Positions 2,461 through 9,815 of a DNA stretch of 38,603 nt are shown here, piece after piece. The DNA comes from Thermoproteota archaeon (lineage in GTDB: Archaea > Korarchaeota > Korarchaeia > Korarchaeales > Korarchaeaceae), in contig JAVCBY010000033.1 in assembly GCA_037917625.1 (NCBI GenBank), positions 1 to 38,603 on the forward strand. Reading direction: 5' to 3'. Position 1 is the first letter of the stretch. Each line of letters opens with the position of its first letter. Position numbers and translations under genes: made by a program. The notes below the pieces were generated by a model. It searched no databases. It saw only the letters and a program-made list of their open reading frames with translations, and was not told where the DNA came from.

Positions 2461-3036
2461 ATGTGGAGGCTTGCGCAGGGCAGGAGGAGACCTCATGATA
2501 GCTGGGCTTACGTTCTATATGTAGATGAGGCTAAGAGGAGAGTCCAGCTTGTTGGAGATAGATATTTCATACTTATGGAGTTCGCTCTGAGGCCAAACGT
2601 TAATGTTAACGTGATGGATAAGATATACGTCGGTAAGGGAGCTAGGAAGGAGGTCAGTAGGTTCATAAGATATCTAACGTACGAAGAGCTCCCTCCAACA
2701 GCTAAAATGCTCCTGGAATCCGTGATCTCGAGGATAGTGAGAGAGGGAGAACAATTCTTCATCAATTTGTTCAATGAAAGTGTCCCCGTGACTACAAGGC
2801 TTCATCAACTCGAACTACTGCCTGGAATAGGGAAGAAAACTCTCCTAAAAATACTCGAGGAGAGAGCTAAGAGACCCTTCTCCAGCTTCTCTGAGCTCGC
2901 TGAGAGAGCGGGCGTAAAGGAACCCGCGGAGCTCATAGTGAGGAGGGTGATGGATGAGATGCTAGGGAAGGACAAATATCATATACTTGTAGCGCCCAGG
3001 GAGTTATTAGAGATCGAAGAGGAGGAAATTAGGTAA
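2461..3036 (+). CDS. DUF655 family putative nucleic-acid-binding protein (HhH)
   Basis: Q-VG--YF-LME, K-Y-GKG-R, FFN----T-RLHQLELLPGIGKK, PF-SF-EL motifs; usual neighbour of rpoF. Confidence 0.88.
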   Translation: MWRLAQGRRRPHDSWAYVLYVDEAKRRVQLVGDRYFILMEFALRPNVNVNVMDKIYVGKGARKEVSRFIRYLTYEELPPTAKMLLESVISRIVREGEQFFINLFNESVPVTTRLHQLELLPGIGKKTLLKILEERAKRPFSSFSELAERAGVKEPAELIVRRVMDEMLGKDKYHILVAPRELLEIEEEEIR

Positions 3037-3763
3037 CTCTTGTCCCTATTTCTCCATTAATTGCCCTAATTAGATCTCCGGGATTCTTGTAACCGGAGAT
3101 CCTCACTTCAATCCCCCTCTCAGCTAACCTAATAGCTGATTCGATTTTCCCCCTTATGGATCCAGTTGCATCGAGGGAGGGGAGGCTCATGCCCTCAAGG
3201 GTGCTCCTGTCGATAACTGGAATTACGTTTCCAGCCTCATCGAGGACTCCAGGTTCATCCATGAGGTATATCACTTTTTCGAACCCTAAGTCCAAGTGAA
3301 GAGGTATCTCATCTGCCGAGAGTATGTAAACTCCCCTCTCATCGTCCGGTATCAGATCACCGTGAGTTAAGGGTATGAATTCCGCTTTAATGAGCTCCTT
3401 CAACGAGGAGGTCTCACACAGGATCCTTCCGTGGTCCCTCCTCATCATGGATCTAGGTGGGAAGGGTGCTACAGGTATGCCCTCCTCCATCATGACCTTC
3501 GCTACCCTCAAGTTGAGTTCGCTCACCCCTATCATCGTCTCAGAGGCTCCCATCCTGTTCCAATCCCCCATCCCTAAGTGAAGGCCGCTCCTCAAGACGG
3601 GCTCATGCCCATACTGCCCAGCCCCATGAGCTAAGAATATTTTGAAATCATTCATTATGCTCTTAATCTCAATAGAAATTCTCCTTAGGACATCCAATCT
3701 TATTTCCCTTCTTCCCTCCTTCTTGAGAGTTATCAGGGAACCCCCGAGCTTTATGTAGAGCAT
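3029..3763 (-). CDS. ipk: Isopentenyl phosphate kinase (amino-acid kinase superfamily)
   Basis: IKLGGSLIT-K, HGAG-YGH (IPK-type His), P--HGD, ILSAD, DATG----KI motifs. Confidence 0.85.
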   Translation of the reverse strand: MLYIKLGGSLITLKKEGRREIRLDVLRRISIEIKSIMNDFKIFLAHGAGQYGHEPVLRSGLHLGMGDWNRMGASETMIGVSELNLRVAKVMMEEGIPVAPFPPRSMMRRDHGRILCETSSLKELIKAEFIPLTHGDLIPDDERGVYILSADEIPLHLDLGFEKVIYLMDEPGVLDEAGNVIPVIDRSTLEGMSLPSLDATGSIRGKIESAIRLAERGIEVRISGYKNPGDLIRAINGEIGTRVT

Positions 3764-3812: not shown

Positions 3813-5402
3813 ATGAGTGATTCAACATACGTGCTGAGTTCGGACGTGCTGATGAGATCTCTGGTGAGATATGAGCCAGGATACTCTCTGATAAAGGGAT
3901 CTAGGCTCATAATACCGGAGGAAGTACTCTCGAAAATAGAGGAGGATGCTCTAAGTGGTGATAGATTCAGTGTAGGAGCTTTAGGGGAGATAATATGGCT
4001 CCAGGATCTCGGGAGGGAGGGTTACATAGAGGAGGTGAGAGTTGAGGAGCACAGGGGAAAGGGGATAGATGCTCTACAGGAATTAGCCAAAAAGTTCTCC
4101 GCAAAGGTCCTCACGGGAGATAGGATAACTACATTATCCCTTCTGGCTAGAGGGGTGGATGTCCAGTACATAGGTCCGAGGATGGACGGGCTCAGGATCT
4201 ACGATTACTTCGATGAGGAGACTATGAGCGTCCACCTGAAAGAAGGAGCCCCGCCTATGGCGAAGAAGGGGCGCCCAGGGAACTTCAAGTTAGTTAAGCT
4301 CTCTGATAAGAAAATGGAGGAATTTGAAGTGAGGACTATAGCTTATGAAATACTGGAGAGGGCGAAGACGGGGATAGATGCTTTCATAGAGGTGATGTAT
4401 GATGATGCTTACATAATACAACTCGGGGACCTTAGGGTATTAGCTGCCTTCCCTCCCTTCTCAGATGGCATCGAGATAACCGCTGTAAGACCCCTGGTGA
4501 AGGTCACCTTAGACGATTATAACTTGAGCGATAAGCTGAAGAGGAGACTGAGCGAGAGAGCGGAAGGTATATTGATAGCTGGACCTCCAGGCGCTGGGAA
4601 GACGACTTTCGCGAGCGCATTAGCGGAGTTCTATAAGGAAAGGGGGAGGATAGTGAAGACTCTCGAGTCACCCAGGGACCTACAAGTGGGGCCAGAGATA
4701 ACTCAATATGGGAGGCTCGCTGGCTCCTTCGAGAATACAGCGGACCTCCTTCTCTTAGTCAGGCCGGATTACGTGATATTCGATGAGATGAGGAAGACTC
4801 AGGACTTCAAGATATTCGTAGATATGAGGTTAGCTGGCGTCGGGATGGTGGGCGTCATTCACTGCGGCTTCCCGATAGAAGCCATACAGAGGTTCATAGA
4901 TAGGGTTGACTTAGGCGTCCTTCCCCACGTAGTCGATACCGTCATATTCATAAAGGACGGGAAGGTTGAGAAAGTATACTCCCTGAAGATAACAGTTAAG
5001 ATGCCTACTGGAATGAGGGATGTGGCTTTAGCGAGGCCAGTAGTCTTAGTTAAGGACTTCGAGACTGAGACAGTGGAGTACGAAATTTACACATTCGGGG
5101 AGGAGGTCATAGTGATGCCGGTCTCAGCTAAGGAACCTGTAGTTGAGGGAGCCCCTAAGTTCAGGTTGAAGAGGAGGAAGCACACGATAATACTGGATCT
5201 AGGTCCCGCGATGTCCGATACTGAAGTGACTATCTACTCAGGTGAGAGGGAAATGGCTACGCTGATCACTGATTCTAGAGGGAGGATAACTCTAGCTAAG
5301 AGCAGCCCTCTAGGTAGGAGAGTCCTTGAAGCGATAAAGAATGAGAATCTGAGGATAGTCCCAGGGGAGAGGAGCGAGGAGTACGAATTCCCATCAGAGT
5401 GA
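3813..5402 (+). CDS. PINA-type ATPase (PIN-like domain + VirB11/PilT-like P-loop ATPase)
   Basis: TMSVHLKEG--P-AKKG-PG, PPFSDG-EITAVRP, GILIAGPPGAGKTTFA, KT-ESPRDLQV, LL-RPDY--FDEMR, DMRLAGVGMVGV-H motifs. Confidence 0.9.
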   Translation: MSDSTYVLSSDVLMRSLVRYEPGYSLIKGSRLIIPEEVLSKIEEDALSGDRFSVGALGEIIWLQDLGREGYIEEVRVEEHRGKGIDALQELAKKFSAKVLTGDRITTLSLLARGVDVQYIGPRMDGLRIYDYFDEETMSVHLKEGAPPMAKKGRPGNFKLVKLSDKKMEEFEVRTIAYEILERAKTGIDAFIEVMYDDAYIIQLGDLRVLAAFPPFSDGIEITAVRPLVKVTLDDYNLSDKLKRRLSERAEGILIAGPPGAGKTTFASALAEFYKERGRIVKTLESPRDLQVGPEITQYGRLAGSFENTADLLLLVRPDYVIFDEMRKTQDFKIFVDMRLAGVGMVGVIHCGFPIEAIQRFIDRVDLGVLPHVVDTVIFIKDGKVEKVYSLKITVKMPTGMRDVALARPVVLVKDFETETVEYEIYTFGEEVIVMPVSAKEPVVEGAPKFRLKRRKHTIILDLGPAMSDTEVTIYSGEREMATLITDSRGRITLAKSSPLGRRVLEAIKNENLRIVPGERSEEYEFPSE

Positions 5403-5924
5403 ATTATTCTCCGCTGACCTCCTCACCCTACCCTCAAAATCCACTTCAATGAGGAAATCTAGAGAAGATCCCGGAACTAGGGACTTCCAGGAACTATCTC
5501 CCTTCAATATGAGCTCCCTTATCTTAGTGGCCTCGTATATCTCCCTCTTGAAGAAGGGGACGTTCTCCACATGAATCCCTACTTCCTCAAGGCACCTCAC
5601 CGTCTCAGGATCATTTGAAAAAGCGATATCTATCCTCGGAACCCTATCCAAGACTATAAGCCCCCAATTCTCCTCAGGCGATTGAGTATCTGGGATGCAA
5701 GATATGAAGATCCTCTCGAGGGGAAAGCCCTCCCTCCTCAATGTCCTCACTATGAGCTCCATCCTCTCCCCAGCTGAGAGGGGGTTCCTCGGGTGGCAGC
5801 AGAACTGGGAGCTCCCTATCCCTATCACAAGCTCCTCAGCCCTAGATAGGGCGTACCTGAATAAGTAGAGATGGCCATGATGGAGGGGCTGAAACCTGCC
5901 TACGACCAGAGCTCTCCTAACCAT
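5394..5924 (-). CDS. nadM: Nicotinamide-nucleotide adenylyltransferase
   Basis: GRFQPLH-GH, IGIGSSQ, NP-SAGER, AT-IRE-I motifs. Start taken as ATG 5924; GTG 5933 is an alternative. Confidence 0.92.
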   Translation of the reverse strand: MVRRALVVGRFQPLHHGHLYLFRYALSRAEELVIGIGSSQFCCHPRNPLSAGERMELIVRTLRREGFPLERIFISCIPDTQSPEENWGLIVLDRVPRIDIAFSNDPETVRCLEEVGIHVENVPFFKREIYEATKIRELILKGDSSWKSLVPGSSLDFLIEVDFEGRVRRSAENNSL

Positions 5925-5935
5925 CTCCCACACCC

Positions 5936-6018: not shown

Positions 6019-6711
6019 TTAATATTCACTTCCCTCAACATCGATGCCTAGGATCCCAGTTATCAAATCCTCGACTTCTTCATCGCTCATCTCAACCTCA
6101 AGGAGTTGATACTTCGAATAACCCTCCTTCCTCCTCTCCAACTCCCTCCCCTCTAAGACTATCGCCCTCCTGAATGGGTGCATCTCCACCTCTATGAAAG
6201 CCCTGACTAAGTTCTCAACAGTCGCTTCATGAAGCACTATGAGTCCATTAACGAGCTCCATAACGATCCTCTTGTGGGCGTGCCCCTTAGGGACCCCTAT
6301 GATTATCCTCCTCAAGTCCCTGTTCCTGATGAAGAGGGCGAACTTGGAGGTCAAGATATTAACTGCTTCTCTAGCTGGTCCTGATAGAGATAGTTCAGCG
6401 GCCTTGCTGAGCTCAACCCATCTCACTTCCTTATTCCCTCTCCCAGGTCTCAGTTTCCCGGAGATCGGCTTGCAGAGATAAGTTATGCGGACCTTATCTC
6501 CATCGGCTTCTCTCACATCGATAGCCCTAATGATATCGATATGCAAACCAGTGGAGTCAGCTATTATCTCACTCAGCGAATCTCTGAGACTCCTCCCAGG
6601 CTCAACTAAGTCACCGGGGATCGACCAATCCTTCCTACCTCTCTCCCTCACTAGGAGCAGGCGATCTCCCTTGATAACGGCGCCTCTCAACTCCAATTTG
6701 TAACTGACCAT
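6019..6711 (-). CDS. Nudix-fold protein with degenerate Nudix box, fused to an uncharacterised C-terminal domain
   Basis: LLLVR...W-IPG--VEPG N-terminal Nudix pattern, but the REUXEE part reads SEIIADS. Second domain P-GH-H-R...EAT--NLVRA------HP...RKEGY---QLLE. Confidence 0.75.
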   Translation of the reverse strand: MVSYKLELRGAVIKGDRLLLVRERGRKDWSIPGDLVEPGRSLRDSLSEIIADSTGLHIDIIRAIDVREADGDKVRITYLCKPISGKLRPGRGNKEVRWVELSKAAELSLSGPAREAVNILTSKFALFIRNRDLRRIIIGVPKGHAHKRIVMELVNGLIVLHEATVENLVRAFIEVEMHPFRRAIVLEGRELERRKEGYSKYQLLEVEMSDEEVEDLITGILGIDVEGSEY

Positions 6712-7568
6712 TAGCCCCTCACTAGGGATGTGAGGGAGGAGAATAGCTTAAGAGATGCACCTAAGGCCGTAGCGTACTGAGGATCTTCAGGGACAATCAG
6801 GTTACCACCGAAAAGTTTTATGGGTCTTTTTATTGCTTCAACTATCTGCTCATAGCTGGCTAATCCTCCAACGAGGACGATCTTATCTTCCAATCCCACT
6901 GATTTAGCTGCGAAGAGGGAAACAACTCCGATGACCTGCCCCACCATATTCACGAGGGCCGCAGCGATGTCCTCTAGTTTAGCGTCATCCACTAGCTTCC
7001 CGAAGTTTGAGGCAGTGGCATTGACATCTAACTTCCCCACGGGCCCTCCGACTATATCACCGACTTTGAGATCCAGGTTCTCGGAGCTCCCCCTTGATGC
7101 TAGTTCAAGGAGTGATTCTATGGATGATCTACCAAGTAAGAGCTTTCCTAAGCCTAAAAGGGTCCCACCTCCGACACCCGTTCCTCCCAAATGCCTGACA
7201 TCGTAGCCAGAATTCCTCTCCCTCACCTCAACTATCGCGGTTCCCGTGCCAGCGCTAGTGACCACGCACTCCCTTAACTTAGCTAAGAAGGCTCCTCCCC
7301 TTCCTATAGCCTCTATCTCATCCACCTCGAAGAGAGGGAGGCCGAGGATACGTTTGGGGAGGGATCTCACTTTCCCCCCGCTCACAGCAATAGCTTCTAC
7401 TTCATTAATATTGAGCCCCATATCAGTCAATATCTTACCTATTGTGCCAGCTGCAGCTGCTAAAGGGTCTGAGGAGACGACTAAAGTCTTCAATATAACC
7501 CCCCTCTCTGATAGCAAGACTCCCTTCGTAGTAGTGCCTCCCATATCCAGCCCTATGACGAACATCAT
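6711..7568 (-). CDS. coaW: Type II pantothenate kinase-like protein (ASKHA fold)
   Basis: GLDMGGTTTK, V-EIEA---G, GTGT, GGTGVGGGTLLGL--LL, G----LDLKVGDI, TASNFGK, DIAA----MV motifs typical of Staphylococcus/eukaryote-type PanK-II. ATG 7568 overlaps the upstream stop (ATGA). Confidence 0.8.
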   Translation of the reverse strand: MMFVIGLDMGGTTTKGVLLSERGVILKTLVVSSDPLAAAAGTIGKILTDMGLNINEVEAIAVSGGKVRSLPKRILGLPLFEVDEIEAIGRGGAFLAKLRECVVTSAGTGTAIVEVRERNSGYDVRHLGGTGVGGGTLLGLGKLLLGRSSIESLLELASRGSSENLDLKVGDIVGGPVGKLDVNATASNFGKLVDDAKLEDIAAALVNMVGQVIGVVSLFAAKSVGLEDKIVLVGGLASYEQIVEAIKRPIKLFGGNLIVPEDPQYATALGASLKLFSSLTSLVRG

Positions 7569-8098
7569 CTCCCCGCCCTCTTTACGGCATGCACTATAGG
7601 AGGGACGAGTATGAGAGCGAATGGGAGCTCCCAAGCTAATGTGACGAAGGATATTGTGAGTGCGGCCGCTATAGATAGCGGGGTTAAGCCCTCTTGGAAT
7701 GGGAGGGGGAAGTATTGGCTCCAGAGGAGGAGGCCTATCCCTATTATCAAGTGCCCCACGGTGAGCCCTAAGGTAGAAGCTATTAAGTACCTCTTCACGC
7801 TATACTTATCCCCTCCAGCGAGCTTTCCTATTATGTAGAAGCATGTGAAGTTAGATGTGACGCCAACTGTCAAGCTTAGGATCGCATTCCCATGAGTAGC
7901 GATGTCCGATATGAATATCCCTATCGCAGCGGATAGCCCGCCTACGCTCGCCCCATAGAGGCATGATATCGTCGCGGGTATCACTACAGAGGGCCAGAAC
8001 CTGACCCCGTAGAAAGTGAGTCCTAACCAGCTCACGTAGCCGATGAGAGCGTACAAGGCTCCCCCTACTGCTGATATAGCGATGTCCCTCAAGTTCAT
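7565..8098 (-). CDS. ECF transporter substrate-binding (S) component
   Basis: 177 aa, about 6 hydrophobic segments; IA--A---ALYA, RF-P----PA------YG---GG--AAIG-FISD pattern. Confidence 0.75.
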   Translation of the reverse strand: MNLRDIAISAVGGALYALIGYVSWLGLTFYGVRFWPSVVIPATISCLYGASVGGLSAAIGIFISDIATHGNAILSLTVGVTSNFTCFYIIGKLAGGDKYSVKRYLIASTLGLTVGHLIIGIGLLLWSQYFPLPFQEGLTPLSIAAALTISFVTLAWELPFALILVPPIVHAVKRAGR

Positions 8099-8132
8099 CC
8101 CTTATGAATGATCCATCAGAATTAAAATTTGA

Positions 8133-8768
8133 CTAGAGGTTGAGGAGCTTGGGCCTCACCTCCTCACCCTCTAAATCGATTATGGCATAATTCCCTCGCG
8201 AGAGAGGCCCTGGGTTTATCGCTAAAGTAGTCCCTATCCTCTCCATACCCCTTGACTCATGTATGTGGCCGCAGATGCAGAGCAAGGGAGCTTCCCTCTC
8301 TATATAATTCCTCAAGGATTTGGATCCTACGCTAAGACCTGAGCTAACTCTATCCAGCCCGCTATCGAAAGGAGGGGTATGGCTAAGCAGGAGATCGACC
8401 TTCCCGAGCTCCTCCAGCATTAGTGAGAGCTCTTCCTCAGTGAACTCGATCCTAGTCATGAAAGGAGAAATCAGGCCTCCTCCCACACCACCGATTGAGT
8501 AGCCCATGATGTAAGCTTTATTACGGTGTAAGTTGAGGCAACCCTCGAGCTCTCGAATCTCGAGAAGGGGAGCAGGATCCATGTTCCCAGGGACGAAGAA
8601 TACATTCTCATTGAAACCCCTAATATATCTAAGAATTTTCCTAACGTCTCCCATATCACCGTTAGAGATATCTCCAGCTACGAATACAGCATCAAAGCTT
8701 TCCCTCTCCAATAGAGGTATTAGCTTCGAATATGATGAGTGCACATCTGAGATCGCGAGCAGTTTCAT
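8133..8768 (-). CDS. Metallophosphoesterase (Icc/calcineurin-like)
   Basis: SDVH, AGDI, PGNMD, SHTPP, CGHIHE, NPG motifs. Start taken at MKLLAISD. Confidence 0.9.
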   Translation of the reverse strand: MKLLAISDVHSSYSKLIPLLERESFDAVFVAGDISNGDMGDVRKILRYIRGFNENVFFVPGNMDPAPLLEIRELEGCLNLHRNKAYIMGYSIGGVGGGLISPFMTRIEFTEEELSLMLEELGKVDLLLSHTPPFDSGLDRVSSGLSVGSKSLRNYIEREAPLLCICGHIHESRGMERIGTTLAINPGPLSRGNYAIIDLEGEEVRPKLLNL

Positions 8769-8810
8769 ACCCCTATCTTCCCCTCTCAATTTAAAATTTA
8801 GGTTGGAATA

Positions 8811-9815
8811 ATGAGGGGAATCGTCAGGATAGGGGAAGGTATCCCCTTGATGGGATCCGTGGCTTTCGGCCTAATAGATAGGGGAACGAATCTGATACAA
8901 GTGAGGCCAATCTCATCCTGCCCCTTATCATGCATATTCTGCTCCACTGATGCCGGGCCCAAGTCTAGGACGAGGAGGACGGAGTTCTTAGTGGATCTAA
9001 ACTACCTCATCTCTTGGTTTGAGAGATTAGTTGAGAGTAAAGGGATTCACGATATTGAGGCTCATATAGATACTGTTGGGGATCCCTTCCTCTACCCTAA
9101 AATAGTGGACCTCGTCAGGAGGCTTAGGGATATCCCTGAGGTGAAAGTGATATCCGCGCAGACTCACGGCCCTCTGCTAACTCAGAAGCTCATAGGGGAG
9201 CTAGAGAGAGGGATTGACAGGATAAACCTGAGCATAGACTCGCTAGAGGAGGGGAAGGCCAAGTACTTAGCTGGATCGGATTGGTTCAGGATAGATAAGG
9301 TGATTGAGGCAGCTAAGAGGATATCCCAGAGCTCCATAGACCTCCTCATAGCGCCCATCTGGGTCCCGGGGCTTAATGATGAGGATATCCCGAGAATAAT
9401 AGAGTTCGCCCTGAGGATAGGGGCAGGGAAGAGATGGCCTGCGCTCGGTATCCAGAAGTATGAGGCTTATAAGGGTGGGAGAAAGCCCAAGGGAGTTAAG
9501 CCAATGAGCTGGGGCGAATTCTACCGGAGACTCGCTGATCTTGAGGGGGAGTTCGGTGTGAAGCTAATACTAAGCCCAGATGATTTCGGGATAAGGAAAG
9601 TCAGGGCAGTAGAGCCTCGCCTTAGAAAAGGTGAGATAGTGAACGTCAAGGTCTTAGGGGAGGGATGGAAGATTGGCGAGGTCCTAGCTGTCGCGAGGAA
9701 TAGAGTTGTGACGGTCTTAGACGCACCTCCCCTTCCGCCAGGTTCATTGATGAAAGTGAGAGTGATCAGGGATAGGGATAATATATATTACGCGAGGTTC
9801 GTCGGAGGTGTGTGA
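8811..9815 (+). CDS. Radical SAM protein with C-terminal TRAM-like domain (COG2100-like)
   Basis: FG-IDRGTN-IQVRP---CPLSCIFC (CxxxCxxC), EAHID--G-P; C-terminal beta-rich RNA-binding-like domain. Confidence 0.85.
   Translation: MRGIVRIGEGIPLMGSVAFGLIDRGTNLIQVRPISSCPLSCIFCSTDAGPKSRTRRTEFLVDLNYLISWFERLVESKGIHDIEAHIDTVGDPFLYPKIVDLVRRLRDIPEVKVISAQTHGPLLTQKLIGELERGIDRINLSIDSLEEGKAKYLAGSDWFRIDKVIEAAKRISQSSIDLLIAPIWVPGLNDEDIPRIIEFALRIGAGKRWPALGIQKYEAYKGGRKPKGVKPMSWGEFYRRLADLEGEFGVKLILSPDDFGIRKVRAVEPRLRKGEIVNVKVLGEGWKIGEVLAVARNRVVTVLDAPPLPPGSLMKVRVIRDRDNIYYARFVGGV

Follow-up and report, generated by a model that had tools for sequence, protein, structure and literature searches.

A 38,603-nt stretch of DNA from a korarchaeal member of the Thermoproteota (contig JAVCBY010000033.1 of GenBank assembly GCA_037917625.1, here called the window) carries three overlapping minus-strand genes for the S component of an energy-coupling factor (ECF) transporter, a homologue of type II pantothenate kinases (PanKs) and a Nudix-like two-domain protein, with nadM downstream. 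By taking into account the identity of the genes, their linkage in other lineages and the gaps in the coenzyme A (CoA) pathway, it is probable that the first two genes form an operon for the uptake and phosphorylation of pantetheine, which shares its gene string with a separate NAD-related pair made of the Nudix-like gene and nadM. The most likely picture is that this archaeon of hot springs, in which most of the CoA pathway is missing, would import pantetheine for the last CoA steps. In the proposed scheme, the solitary S component would dock on one of the ECF energising modules of the genome and import a vitamer of vitamin B5, the co-translated type II PanK homologue would phosphorylate it, and pantetheine would be converted to 4'-phosphopantetheine, dephospho-CoA and CoA by the kinase, by phosphopantetheine adenylyltransferase (PPAT) and by dephospho-CoA kinase (DPCK), respectively. 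The window is contig C52 of an assembly of 1.22 Mb in 116 contigs, which is 84% complete, and its closest homologues are named Candidatus Korarchaeum or Korarchaeota in the source databases.

Direct reading of the sequence confirmed the three minus-strand open reading frames (ORFs) with overlapping ends. The TGA of the S-component gene (7565..8098, minus strand, 177 aa), which encodes a candidate pantetheine/pantothenate-binding subunit, overlaps the ATG of the gene for the predicted pantetheine (possibly pantothenate) kinase (6711..7568, minus strand, 285 aa) in an ATGA at 7568-7565, and the TAA of the latter overlaps the ATG of the Nudix-like gene (gene 3; 6019..6711, minus strand, 230 aa), the product of which combines a degenerate Nudix box with a C-terminal domain, in a TAATG at 6713-6709. 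An earlier interpretation made from the letters of the window without database searches (the sequence-only reading) had described these overlaps, the TTTTAA upstream and the nadM gene downstream, all of which were read again in the sequence. TTTTAA is found at 8127-8122, in a TATA-like promoter box (AAATTTTAAT, 8121..8130, minus strand), and 23 nt separate it from the S-component ATG at 8098. When the upstream regions of 11 sequences (the window and 10 loci of the genus) were aligned, the only conserved block was TTTT(A/T)ATT, with A61, T65-67 and A69-T71 as invariant columns, at the distance expected for an archaeal TATA box. The box would act as a promoter, and its 23-nt spacing from the ATG suggests a leaderless or very short-leader transcript. 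The order metallophosphoesterase/S component/kinase/Nudix-like gene/nadM was found in 11/11 loci from other species of the genus, where a divergent radical-SAM gene accompanies the string. Because the order recurs in all of these loci and the upstream box is conserved, the arrangement is more than chance.

The start of the kinase was set at ATG 7568, and its end at the TAA at 6713-6711, because the resulting 285-aa form aligns over 99-100% of its length with homologues of 283-286 aa and the aligned family members all start at an M-x-I-x-G-x-D-x-G-G motif; the TTG at 7634 that the ORF-listing program had taken as start falls outside the family N-terminus and was rejected. The protein matches the NCBIfam equivalog model for type II pantothenate kinase (NF009842) with 263.4 bits, over the cut-off of 234, along positions 1-273 of 277, and the Fumble model PF03630 with 84 bits; many of its relatives fall slightly under the NF009842 cut-off, at 199-231 bits. 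The alternative identity as a BadF/BadG/BcrA/BcrD-type activase was rejected, since the activase models are weak (50 bits on PF01869; 64.6 bits on TIGR00241, with a cut-off of 125) and the PanK profile matches are far stronger: a profile built on 15 family members found Staphylococcus aureus PanK-II at 1.6e-27 and human PanK1-3 at approximately 1e-25 to 1e-22 among solved structures, and a dehydratase activase at 1.4e-12. The sequence-only reading had placed the protein with PanK-II, with grouping with BadF/BcrAD as the outcome that would speak against it, and its assignment stands. On these sequence comparisons the kinase is a type II PanK homologue of a distinct subclade, which should not be filed as a plain pantothenate kinase.

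The reason for this caution lies in the substrate site. Residues D8, G10, E84, G107-T110 and G128-T136 are invariant in the kinase alignment (A1), the GTGT and GGTGxGGGT motifs are retained, and the catalytic Glu (E84 in the window) is kept in 92/92 kinase sequences. In the portion of a recent preprint that deals with human PanK3 (10.64898/2026.01.22.701186), the corresponding E138 is described as the catalytic base, and R207, assisted by S195, as the anchor of the pantothenate carboxylate. From the HMMER alignment, R207 and S195 are equivalent to R113 and S102 of the S. aureus enzyme and to His126 and Ala111 of the window kinase (residue numbers being counted from the printed alignments), so that the carboxylate-anchoring Arg/Ser pair of characterised type II PanKs is not kept in the latter. 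Across the 92 sequences the position of R207 is occupied by His in 68 cases, Tyr in 24 and Arg in none, and that of S195 by Ala in 83, Ser in eight and Val in one. As a hypothesis, an enzyme that has lost both anchors would suit a substrate that bears no carboxylate. The family is large (1388 proteins at E <= 0.001), and its 470 confirmed loci come from archaea, Clostridia, Bacteroidota, Spirochaetota, Binatia and Myxococcota; the statement of the sequence-only reading that PanK-II is known mainly from eukaryotes and some Firmicutes is thus out of date. In a quick, unrooted maximum-likelihood tree of the 92 sequences (IQ-TREE), a branch with an SH-aLRT value of 96 separates the 32 archaeal rows from the rest, the Binatia/Myxococcota group being next to them; because the tree is unrooted, we draw no conclusion about a donor or a direction of transfer.

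The second line of evidence comes from what surrounds the kinase in the CoA pathway. In the window's own genome (84% complete), phosphopantothenate synthetase (PPS), CoaB and CoaC were not found, and tblastn searches with the CoaBC and PPS of a relative returned only E > 0.5, as compared with 6e-27 for the PPAT control. The only three GHMP kinases of the genome are homoserine, shikimate and mevalonate kinases. The genome check that the sequence-only reading had called for was thus borne out as to the lack of pantoate kinase (PoK) and PPS, the former judged through the GHMP kinases and the latter through its models, and PPAT, DPCK and the ECF A/T genes are present. The full DPCK of G000 lies on contig C37; short partial matches to its family (DUF359) on the small contigs C110 (1165-1293) and C6 (1116-1235) may stem from assembly fragments or from strain variants. 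As this assembly is incomplete, the weight of the absences rests on its relatives. Among the 25 genomes of the family (the window's own and 24 relatives), CoaB and PPS were each found in 0/25 and the kinase in 24/25; five genomes of the genus are 99% complete, one of them a single closed contig, and have PPAT and DPCK in 5/5 and CoaC in 0/5, the latter also being undetected in all six genus genomes when the window's own is included. In 19 other archaeal genomes with the kinase, CoaB over the cut-off and PPS were found in 0/19 and DPCK in 19/19, with a single CoaB match at 20 bits, under the cut-off.

Bacteria that carry the same kinase clade divide by lineage. Of the 60 bacterial genomes in the sample, 50 were examined: intact CoaB was found in 0/22 Bacillota, 4/10 Bacteroidota and 12/13 genomes of the Binatia/Myxococcota group, and full-length CoaB in 0/5 Spirochaetota, two of which have partial matches. 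A fifth Bacteroidota copy is interrupted by five in-frame stops (G251:C3:39727-40239, from a member of the Bacteroidales) and looks like a CoaBC in mid-decay. A type III kinase (CoaX) is present in 15 of the 16 bacterial genomes with intact CoaB, so that the type II-like kinase is an extra kinase there. The gene pattern of the archaea and Bacillota is the one published for the pantetheine shunt: in the pertinent passages of PMC6593275, pantetheine salvage was proposed for 91 gut strains that have the kinase, CoaD and CoaE and lack CoaBC, known B5 transporters were found in only 12% of these strains and pantetheine transporters were described as largely unknown. Similarly, sections of PMC11487621 report that pantetheine is phosphorylated by CoaA-type kinases and not by CoaX. 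As to archaea, passages of PMC6650551 list Korarchaeota and Bathyarchaeota as missing PoK and PPS, and the replacement is not named in those passages. We infer that pantetheine would be the only substrate leading to CoA in this organism, because phosphorylated pantothenate would have no next enzyme, CoaBC not having been found. The import and direct phosphorylation of pantothenate or pantetheine that had been read from the sequence is in this way supported for pantetheine, and pantothenate loses its place as a route to CoA, CoaBC being missing as well as PoK and PPS.

The first gene is, from both its sequence and its predicted structure, an ECF transporter S component, as the sequence-only reading had named it. 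It matches PF12822 with 58.1 bits (cut-off 30.7) over positions 1-169 of 169, a weak match to PF07155 was also obtained, and no biotin-family match was found in Pfam. The AlphaFold2 (AF2) model, calculated from a 20-sequence alignment, has six helices and a mean pLDDT of 91.8, and the top 10 Foldseek matches in the PDB were all ECF S components, with probability 1.00 and TMq of 0.55-0.72; the best folds were those of HmpT, ThiT, RibU, BioY and FolT, with E-values (>= 4e-3) that miss the 0.001 line. Sequence and family-profile searches of the PDB returned no solved chain at E <= 10. Among the 120 S homologues listed, most are nameless, those named in the source are all archaeal (Korarchaeota, Nitrososphaeria, Bathyarchaeia, Aigarchaeota) and none carries the name of a substrate. 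The family is marked by the invariant motifs VRFWP and GIFISD..HG..LSLTVGV.SNF, and exists in a short form of approximately 177 aa and a long form of approximately 245 aa with an inserted segment. The stretch ...SAVGGALYA... contains A-x3-A, which may correspond to the AxxxA motif through which helix 1 of S components contacts EcfT. Since the genome has three CbiQ/EcfT genes, preceded by a 491-aa double ABC ATPase, by an ABC ATPase at the edge of a contig and by a RibU-like S gene, energising modules are available to the solitary S component, which would dock on one of them.

The linkage of S component and kinase extends well beyond the genus. It was followed in the 11 genus loci and in the 80 best kinase loci of other species, 20 of them archaeal and 60 bacterial. 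In searches with the window protein the S component adjoins the kinase in 11/11 genus loci and in 17/20 other archaeal loci, in agreement with the family profile, which found the S component at 29 archaeal kinase loci including the window's own; with both protein and profile, the archaeal S family was found in 0/60 bacterial kinase loci. The three archaeal loci without it belong to two Aenigmarchaeota and to one archaeon that groups with them. The two genes are co-directional, often overlapping, or divergent, and they are also adjacent in the relatives G028, G031 and G022. The synteny across archaea to which the sequence-only reading had pointed as a check proved to be conserved in several archaeal classes. 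Five Bathyarchaeia loci read DUF763/PPAT/S component/kinase, the PPAT scoring 186 bits on NF001985 (cut-off 104); in four of them (L030, L057, L068 and L076) the string is headed by the DUF763 protein, of approximately 380 aa, and in L066 the PPAT/S component/kinase string occurs without it. Three Clostridia loci have a different S component directly upstream of the same kinase clade, and the only one of these tested (L096) is a PanT homologue, with a match to 4rfs_S at 9.6e-8; the archaeal family aligned to it by hhalign gave a probability of 0.1%. The presence of two unrelated S families at the same place by one kinase clade is good evidence that the archaeal S family carries a B5-type vitamer.

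Other neighbours of the kinase vary among lineages. In loci L023 and L027 it is flanked on both sides by paralogous S genes, which could serve two substrates, e.g. pantothenate and pantetheine. Directly upstream of the S-kinase pair of the Nitrososphaeria locus L028 is the gene (4208-5416) for a nicotinate phosphoribosyltransferase (476 bits on NF006415), the second instance in which the CoA salvage pair has NAD salvage genes as neighbours. A protein of approximately 409 aa with a C-terminal GNAT domain is encoded directly upstream of the kinase in eight loci of the Binatia/Myxococcota group (L035, L036, L050, L074, L075, L083, L091 and L097) and one gene further upstream in L058.

Several observations weigh against a system that serves pantetheine. 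The window's own genome is incomplete, the search for PoK, none of which was seen, was the indirect one through GHMP kinases, and the relatives behind the absences are kin, not independent witnesses; the archaeal counts are not independent either, because two of the 19 other archaeal genomes probably duplicate assemblies already counted among the relatives, and all 19 were picked by likeness to this kinase. The fold of the S component does not bring it nearer to PanT, which ranks 16th at TMq 0.55, than to ThiT, RibU or HmpT. Furthermore, G028 and G031 have an orthologous S-kinase pair together with CoaBC, and G028, G029 and G031 combine the His/Ala kinase with CoaBC, PPS and CoaX not having been found in these genomes. 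The kinase of the three genomes probably phosphorylates pantothenate too (type I PanK was not part of the search), and from the presence of CoaBC without PPS or CoaX it follows that kinase and S component need not be pantetheine-specific. Dual specificity of the kinase for pantetheine and pantothenate appears likely on such sequence grounds, and an unrecognised analogue of CoaBC is possible. The latter is the core of the first rival explanation, canonical salvage, in which the S component would import pantothenate, the kinase would make 4'-phosphopantothenate and an unrecognised pair of non-homologous enzymes would stand in for CoaBC. The passing of the curated type II pantothenate kinase model, the pairing of the same S component and kinase with CoaBC in G028 and G031, the kinase that adjoins CoaBC in G030 (380 bits on TIGR00521) and the finding, reported in passages of PMC6650551, that archaeal CoA enzymes repeatedly proved to be non-homologous analogues of bacterial ones, would all agree with it. 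However, the joint loss of CoaB (0/25 in the family, 0/19 in the other archaea) and retention of DPCK (19/19) recurs as the shunt signature (passages of PMC6593275) in 22/22 Bacillota with this kinase clade, and no candidate CoaBC analogue is linked to the locus in the lineages examined, which leaves canonical salvage unlikely.

A pair unrelated to vitamin B5, made of an ASKHA kinase or activase of another substrate and an S component for an unrelated vitamin or an NAD precursor, would account for the replacement of the anchoring Arg/Ser by His/Ala, for the S component without a detectable sequence relation to PanT and for the NAD genes that flank the pair here, as well as for the nicotinate phosphoribosyltransferase of the Nitrososphaeria locus. 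This is the least probable of the explanations considered: the equivalog match is full-length and over the cut-off, neither the catalytic Glu nor the ASKHA motifs vary, the pair is found with an adjacent PPAT in the five Bathyarchaeia loci, the kinase with an adjacent CoaBC in G030 and with a PanT homologue upstream in Clostridia, and the genomes keep PPAT and DPCK without another known entry to CoA (type I PanK again being outside the search), whereas the pair has NAD genes for neighbours in Korarchaeia and, apart from these, in a single locus. Finally, the three genes might form one system in which the Nudix-like protein acts on CoA nucleotides, e.g. by sensing or cleaving CoA or dephospho-CoA. 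The TAATG that joins the kinase stop to the start of gene 3 and the position of gene 3 beside the kinase in the genera g1, g2 and g4 and in family f2 invite this proposal; but the genus has a degenerate Nudix box, in g3 and g5 gene 3 lies apart from the kinase, and both its domains, as described below, have their nearest relatives and neighbours in NAD metabolism, so that a three-gene CoA system is very unlikely. An operon for pantetheine uptake and phosphorylation beside a separate NAD-related pair remains the explanation that we favour. A bolder form of it, held only tentatively and with somewhat more doubt than confidence, is that the archaeal S family would be the first dedicated pantetheine importer, that the His/Tyr kinase clade would in effect consist of pantetheine kinases, and that the C-terminal domain of gene 3 would define a new, unnamed family whose members work together with NAD synthetase and ADP-ribose enzymes.

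Gene 3 encodes a Nudix fold (residues 1-124) followed by an uncharacterised C-terminal domain (approximately residues 125-222). The consensus of the Nudix box is GX5EX7REUXEEXGU. In gene 3 the box reads GDLVEPGRSLRDSLSEIIADSTGL, with R, EI and DS at the E, RE and EE positions, and the catalytic residues are not kept in the window or in the ten other genus sequences aligned, so that the label 'pseudo-Nudix' of the sequence-only reading is right for this genus. A canonical box is present in the more distant two-domain relatives P0251, P0253 and L026, whose best NCBIfam scores, far under the cut-offs, are those on the Nudix halves of NadM-Nudix models. The catalytically degenerate domain of the genus is probably a module that binds a nucleotide or ADP-ribose. 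The C-terminal domain (window 6019-6393), of approximately 100 aa, shows the conserved pattern GHxHxR...EAT...HP...RK.GY..YQL.E, with P141, H146, R148, R170, P179, Q202 and E205 invariant, and is predicted to consist of three strands, a helix, two strands and a helix. Sequence and profile searches returned no match to it in Pfam, NCBIfam or the PDB, and in Atlas only clusters named 'hypothetical protein' were found, under 0.9. Structure searches with the model of gene 3 were filled by Nudix matches, and for the NrtR structure 3gz5 the alignment was confined to the Nudix part (model residues 4-124); an NrtR-like regulator, though possible, was not adopted, the Nudix part fitting and the predicted C-terminal domain not looking like a winged helix.

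The neighbourhoods of this domain are those of NAD metabolism. It was found in 34/35 genomes of the family and in 0/133 genomes of one other archaeal phylum, a count that is uninformative given that the phylum was chosen blind; free-standing versions, 'hypothetical' proteins of approximately 105-115 aa, occur in Thermoproteota-type archaea. The domain adjoins the kinase in genera g1, g2, g4 and g6, and in g3 the two-domain gene comes after a CN-hydrolase gene. In the two genomes of g7 the gene for the free-standing domain runs over the start of a gene of CinA type ('NMN deamidase-related'; 326 bits on NF002291, cut-off 293), and in 79 metagenome loci of the domain a same-strand CN-hydrolase gene lies immediately upstream in 46/79 and a NAD synthase gene two genes upstream in 37/79, many of these loci sharing a wider synteny and probably coming from one lineage. 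The loci of the domain are L109, L110, L128, L131 and L132-L211. Because four different NAD-related neighbours are found (NAD synthase, CN-hydrolase, CinA and nadM), gene 3 was assigned on its genomic context to NAD/ADP-ribose rather than CoA metabolism, where the sequence-only reading had put it; gene 3 and nadM would then form the NAD-related pair of the favoured explanation.

NadM, the archaeal nicotinamide-mononucleotide adenylyltransferase (5394..5933, minus strand), matches NF002243 with 148.4 bits (cut-off 127) and TIGR01527 with 125 bits, under its cut-off. It begins 85 nt downstream of the Nudix-like gene or, if the equally possible ATG at 5924 is its start, 94 nt downstream. A gene for a homologue of PINA-type Holliday-junction branch-migration ATPases (window 3813-5402, plus strand; NF010335, 654 bits) converges on nadM, the two ORF ends overlapping at 5394-5402, and an isopentenyl phosphate kinase is encoded at 3029-3763 on the minus strand (NF040647, 126 bits). 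On the other side, the metallophosphoesterase gene (8133-8789, minus strand) and a MoaA-like radical-SAM gene (8811-9815, plus strand) border the operon in most genus loci.

Part of this is already known. In assemblies of Korarchaeota and Bathyarchaeota, databases label the protein 'type II pantothenate kinase', the lack of PoK and PPS is in print (passages of PMC6650551) and an auxotrophy of Korarchaeum for some cofactors is mentioned in a passage of PMC12787533. The non-canonical archaeal CoA salvage that had been read from the sequence is partly supported, and its novelty had been overstated. The literature search returned no account of a pantetheine shunt in archaea, and a supplement on Korarchaeota cofactors (PMC12787533) that lies outside the search may bear on the point; nor did it return a CoaBC absence tied to the kinase in archaea, an archaeal S partner, the residue change or the NAD-linked domain. 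Queries that joined Korarchaeum or Korarchaeum cryptofilum to pantothenate or pantothenate kinase, and archaea to type II pantothenate kinase, gave no relevant literature. With this background, the locus provides a concrete, testable answer to how Korarchaeota and Bathyarchaeota without PoK and PPS may obtain CoA, namely by uptake of pantetheine and the last three steps of the pathway, and a candidate for the missing pantetheine uptake systems to which passages of the bacterial survey (PMC6593275) drew attention. It also singles out a testable residue change in a kinase clade (Arg to His/Tyr and Ser to Ala at the carboxylate anchors), brings to light a domain family, as yet without a name, that is linked to NAD metabolism, and suggests pantethine or pantetheine as a medium supplement for lineages that have resisted cultivation. 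If the bolder proposal is true, the His/Tyr kinase clade would be a marker of CoA synthesis independent of CoaBC in Korarchaeia, Bathyarchaeia, Nitrososphaeria-like archaea and many gut Clostridia, and lineages with this kinase would depend on CoA breakdown products from their neighbours.

A comparison with known systems places each module of the string near, and apart from, a characterised one. As in NadM-Nudix enzymes, a Nudix domain is found with NadM, but as the product of a separate neighbouring gene rather than as a fusion; and as in NrtR, the genus copy of gene 3 has lost the catalytic box, but the predicted secondary structure of its C-terminal domain does not look like that of a winged helix. 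The kinase shares fold family, catalytic Glu and motifs with S. aureus CoaW (2ews, 4m7x) and human PanK1-3 (5kpr), and differs in having His126/Ala111 where CoaW and human PanK3 carry the anchoring Arg and Ser. The S component resembles ECF-PanT (group II; PDB 4rfs, 6zg3) in its six-helix fold, in being solitary with the ECF module encoded elsewhere, and in its place, a PanT homologue taking the same upstream position by the kinase clade in Clostridia; it differs in having its own archaeal motifs, no detectable sequence relation and only the sixteenth rank by fold. PanU (YhfU) of Bacillus subtilis, BioY-like and similar to biotin S proteins according to sections of PMC11487621, indicates that pantothenate specificity arose more than once among S components, and the window protein is set apart from it by its matches to PF12822 and, weakly, PF07155 rather than to a biotin family. 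At the level of the pathway, the PoK/PPS route of archaea, as outlined in passages of PMC6650551, leads to the same CoA end product through the same downstream PPAT and DPCK, whereas PoK and PPS are absent here, as in the exceptions that those passages list. The same kinase-PPAT-DPCK topology is that of the CoaA-dependent salvage of pantetheine in Escherichia coli and B. subtilis (sections of PMC11487621). The nearest parallel is the bacterial pantetheine shunt (Apn; passages of PMC6593275), which likewise uses a PanK, CoaD and CoaE and dispenses with CoaBC: here too kinase, PPAT and DPCK are present and CoaB and CoaC were not found, panB and panC lying outside the search. Unlike it, the system described here is archaeal, with an archaeal PPAT, a GTP-type DPCK (DUF359) and a type II kinase, and whereas those passages describe the transporters of the bacterial shunt as mostly unknown, it would have a dedicated S component within the operon itself.

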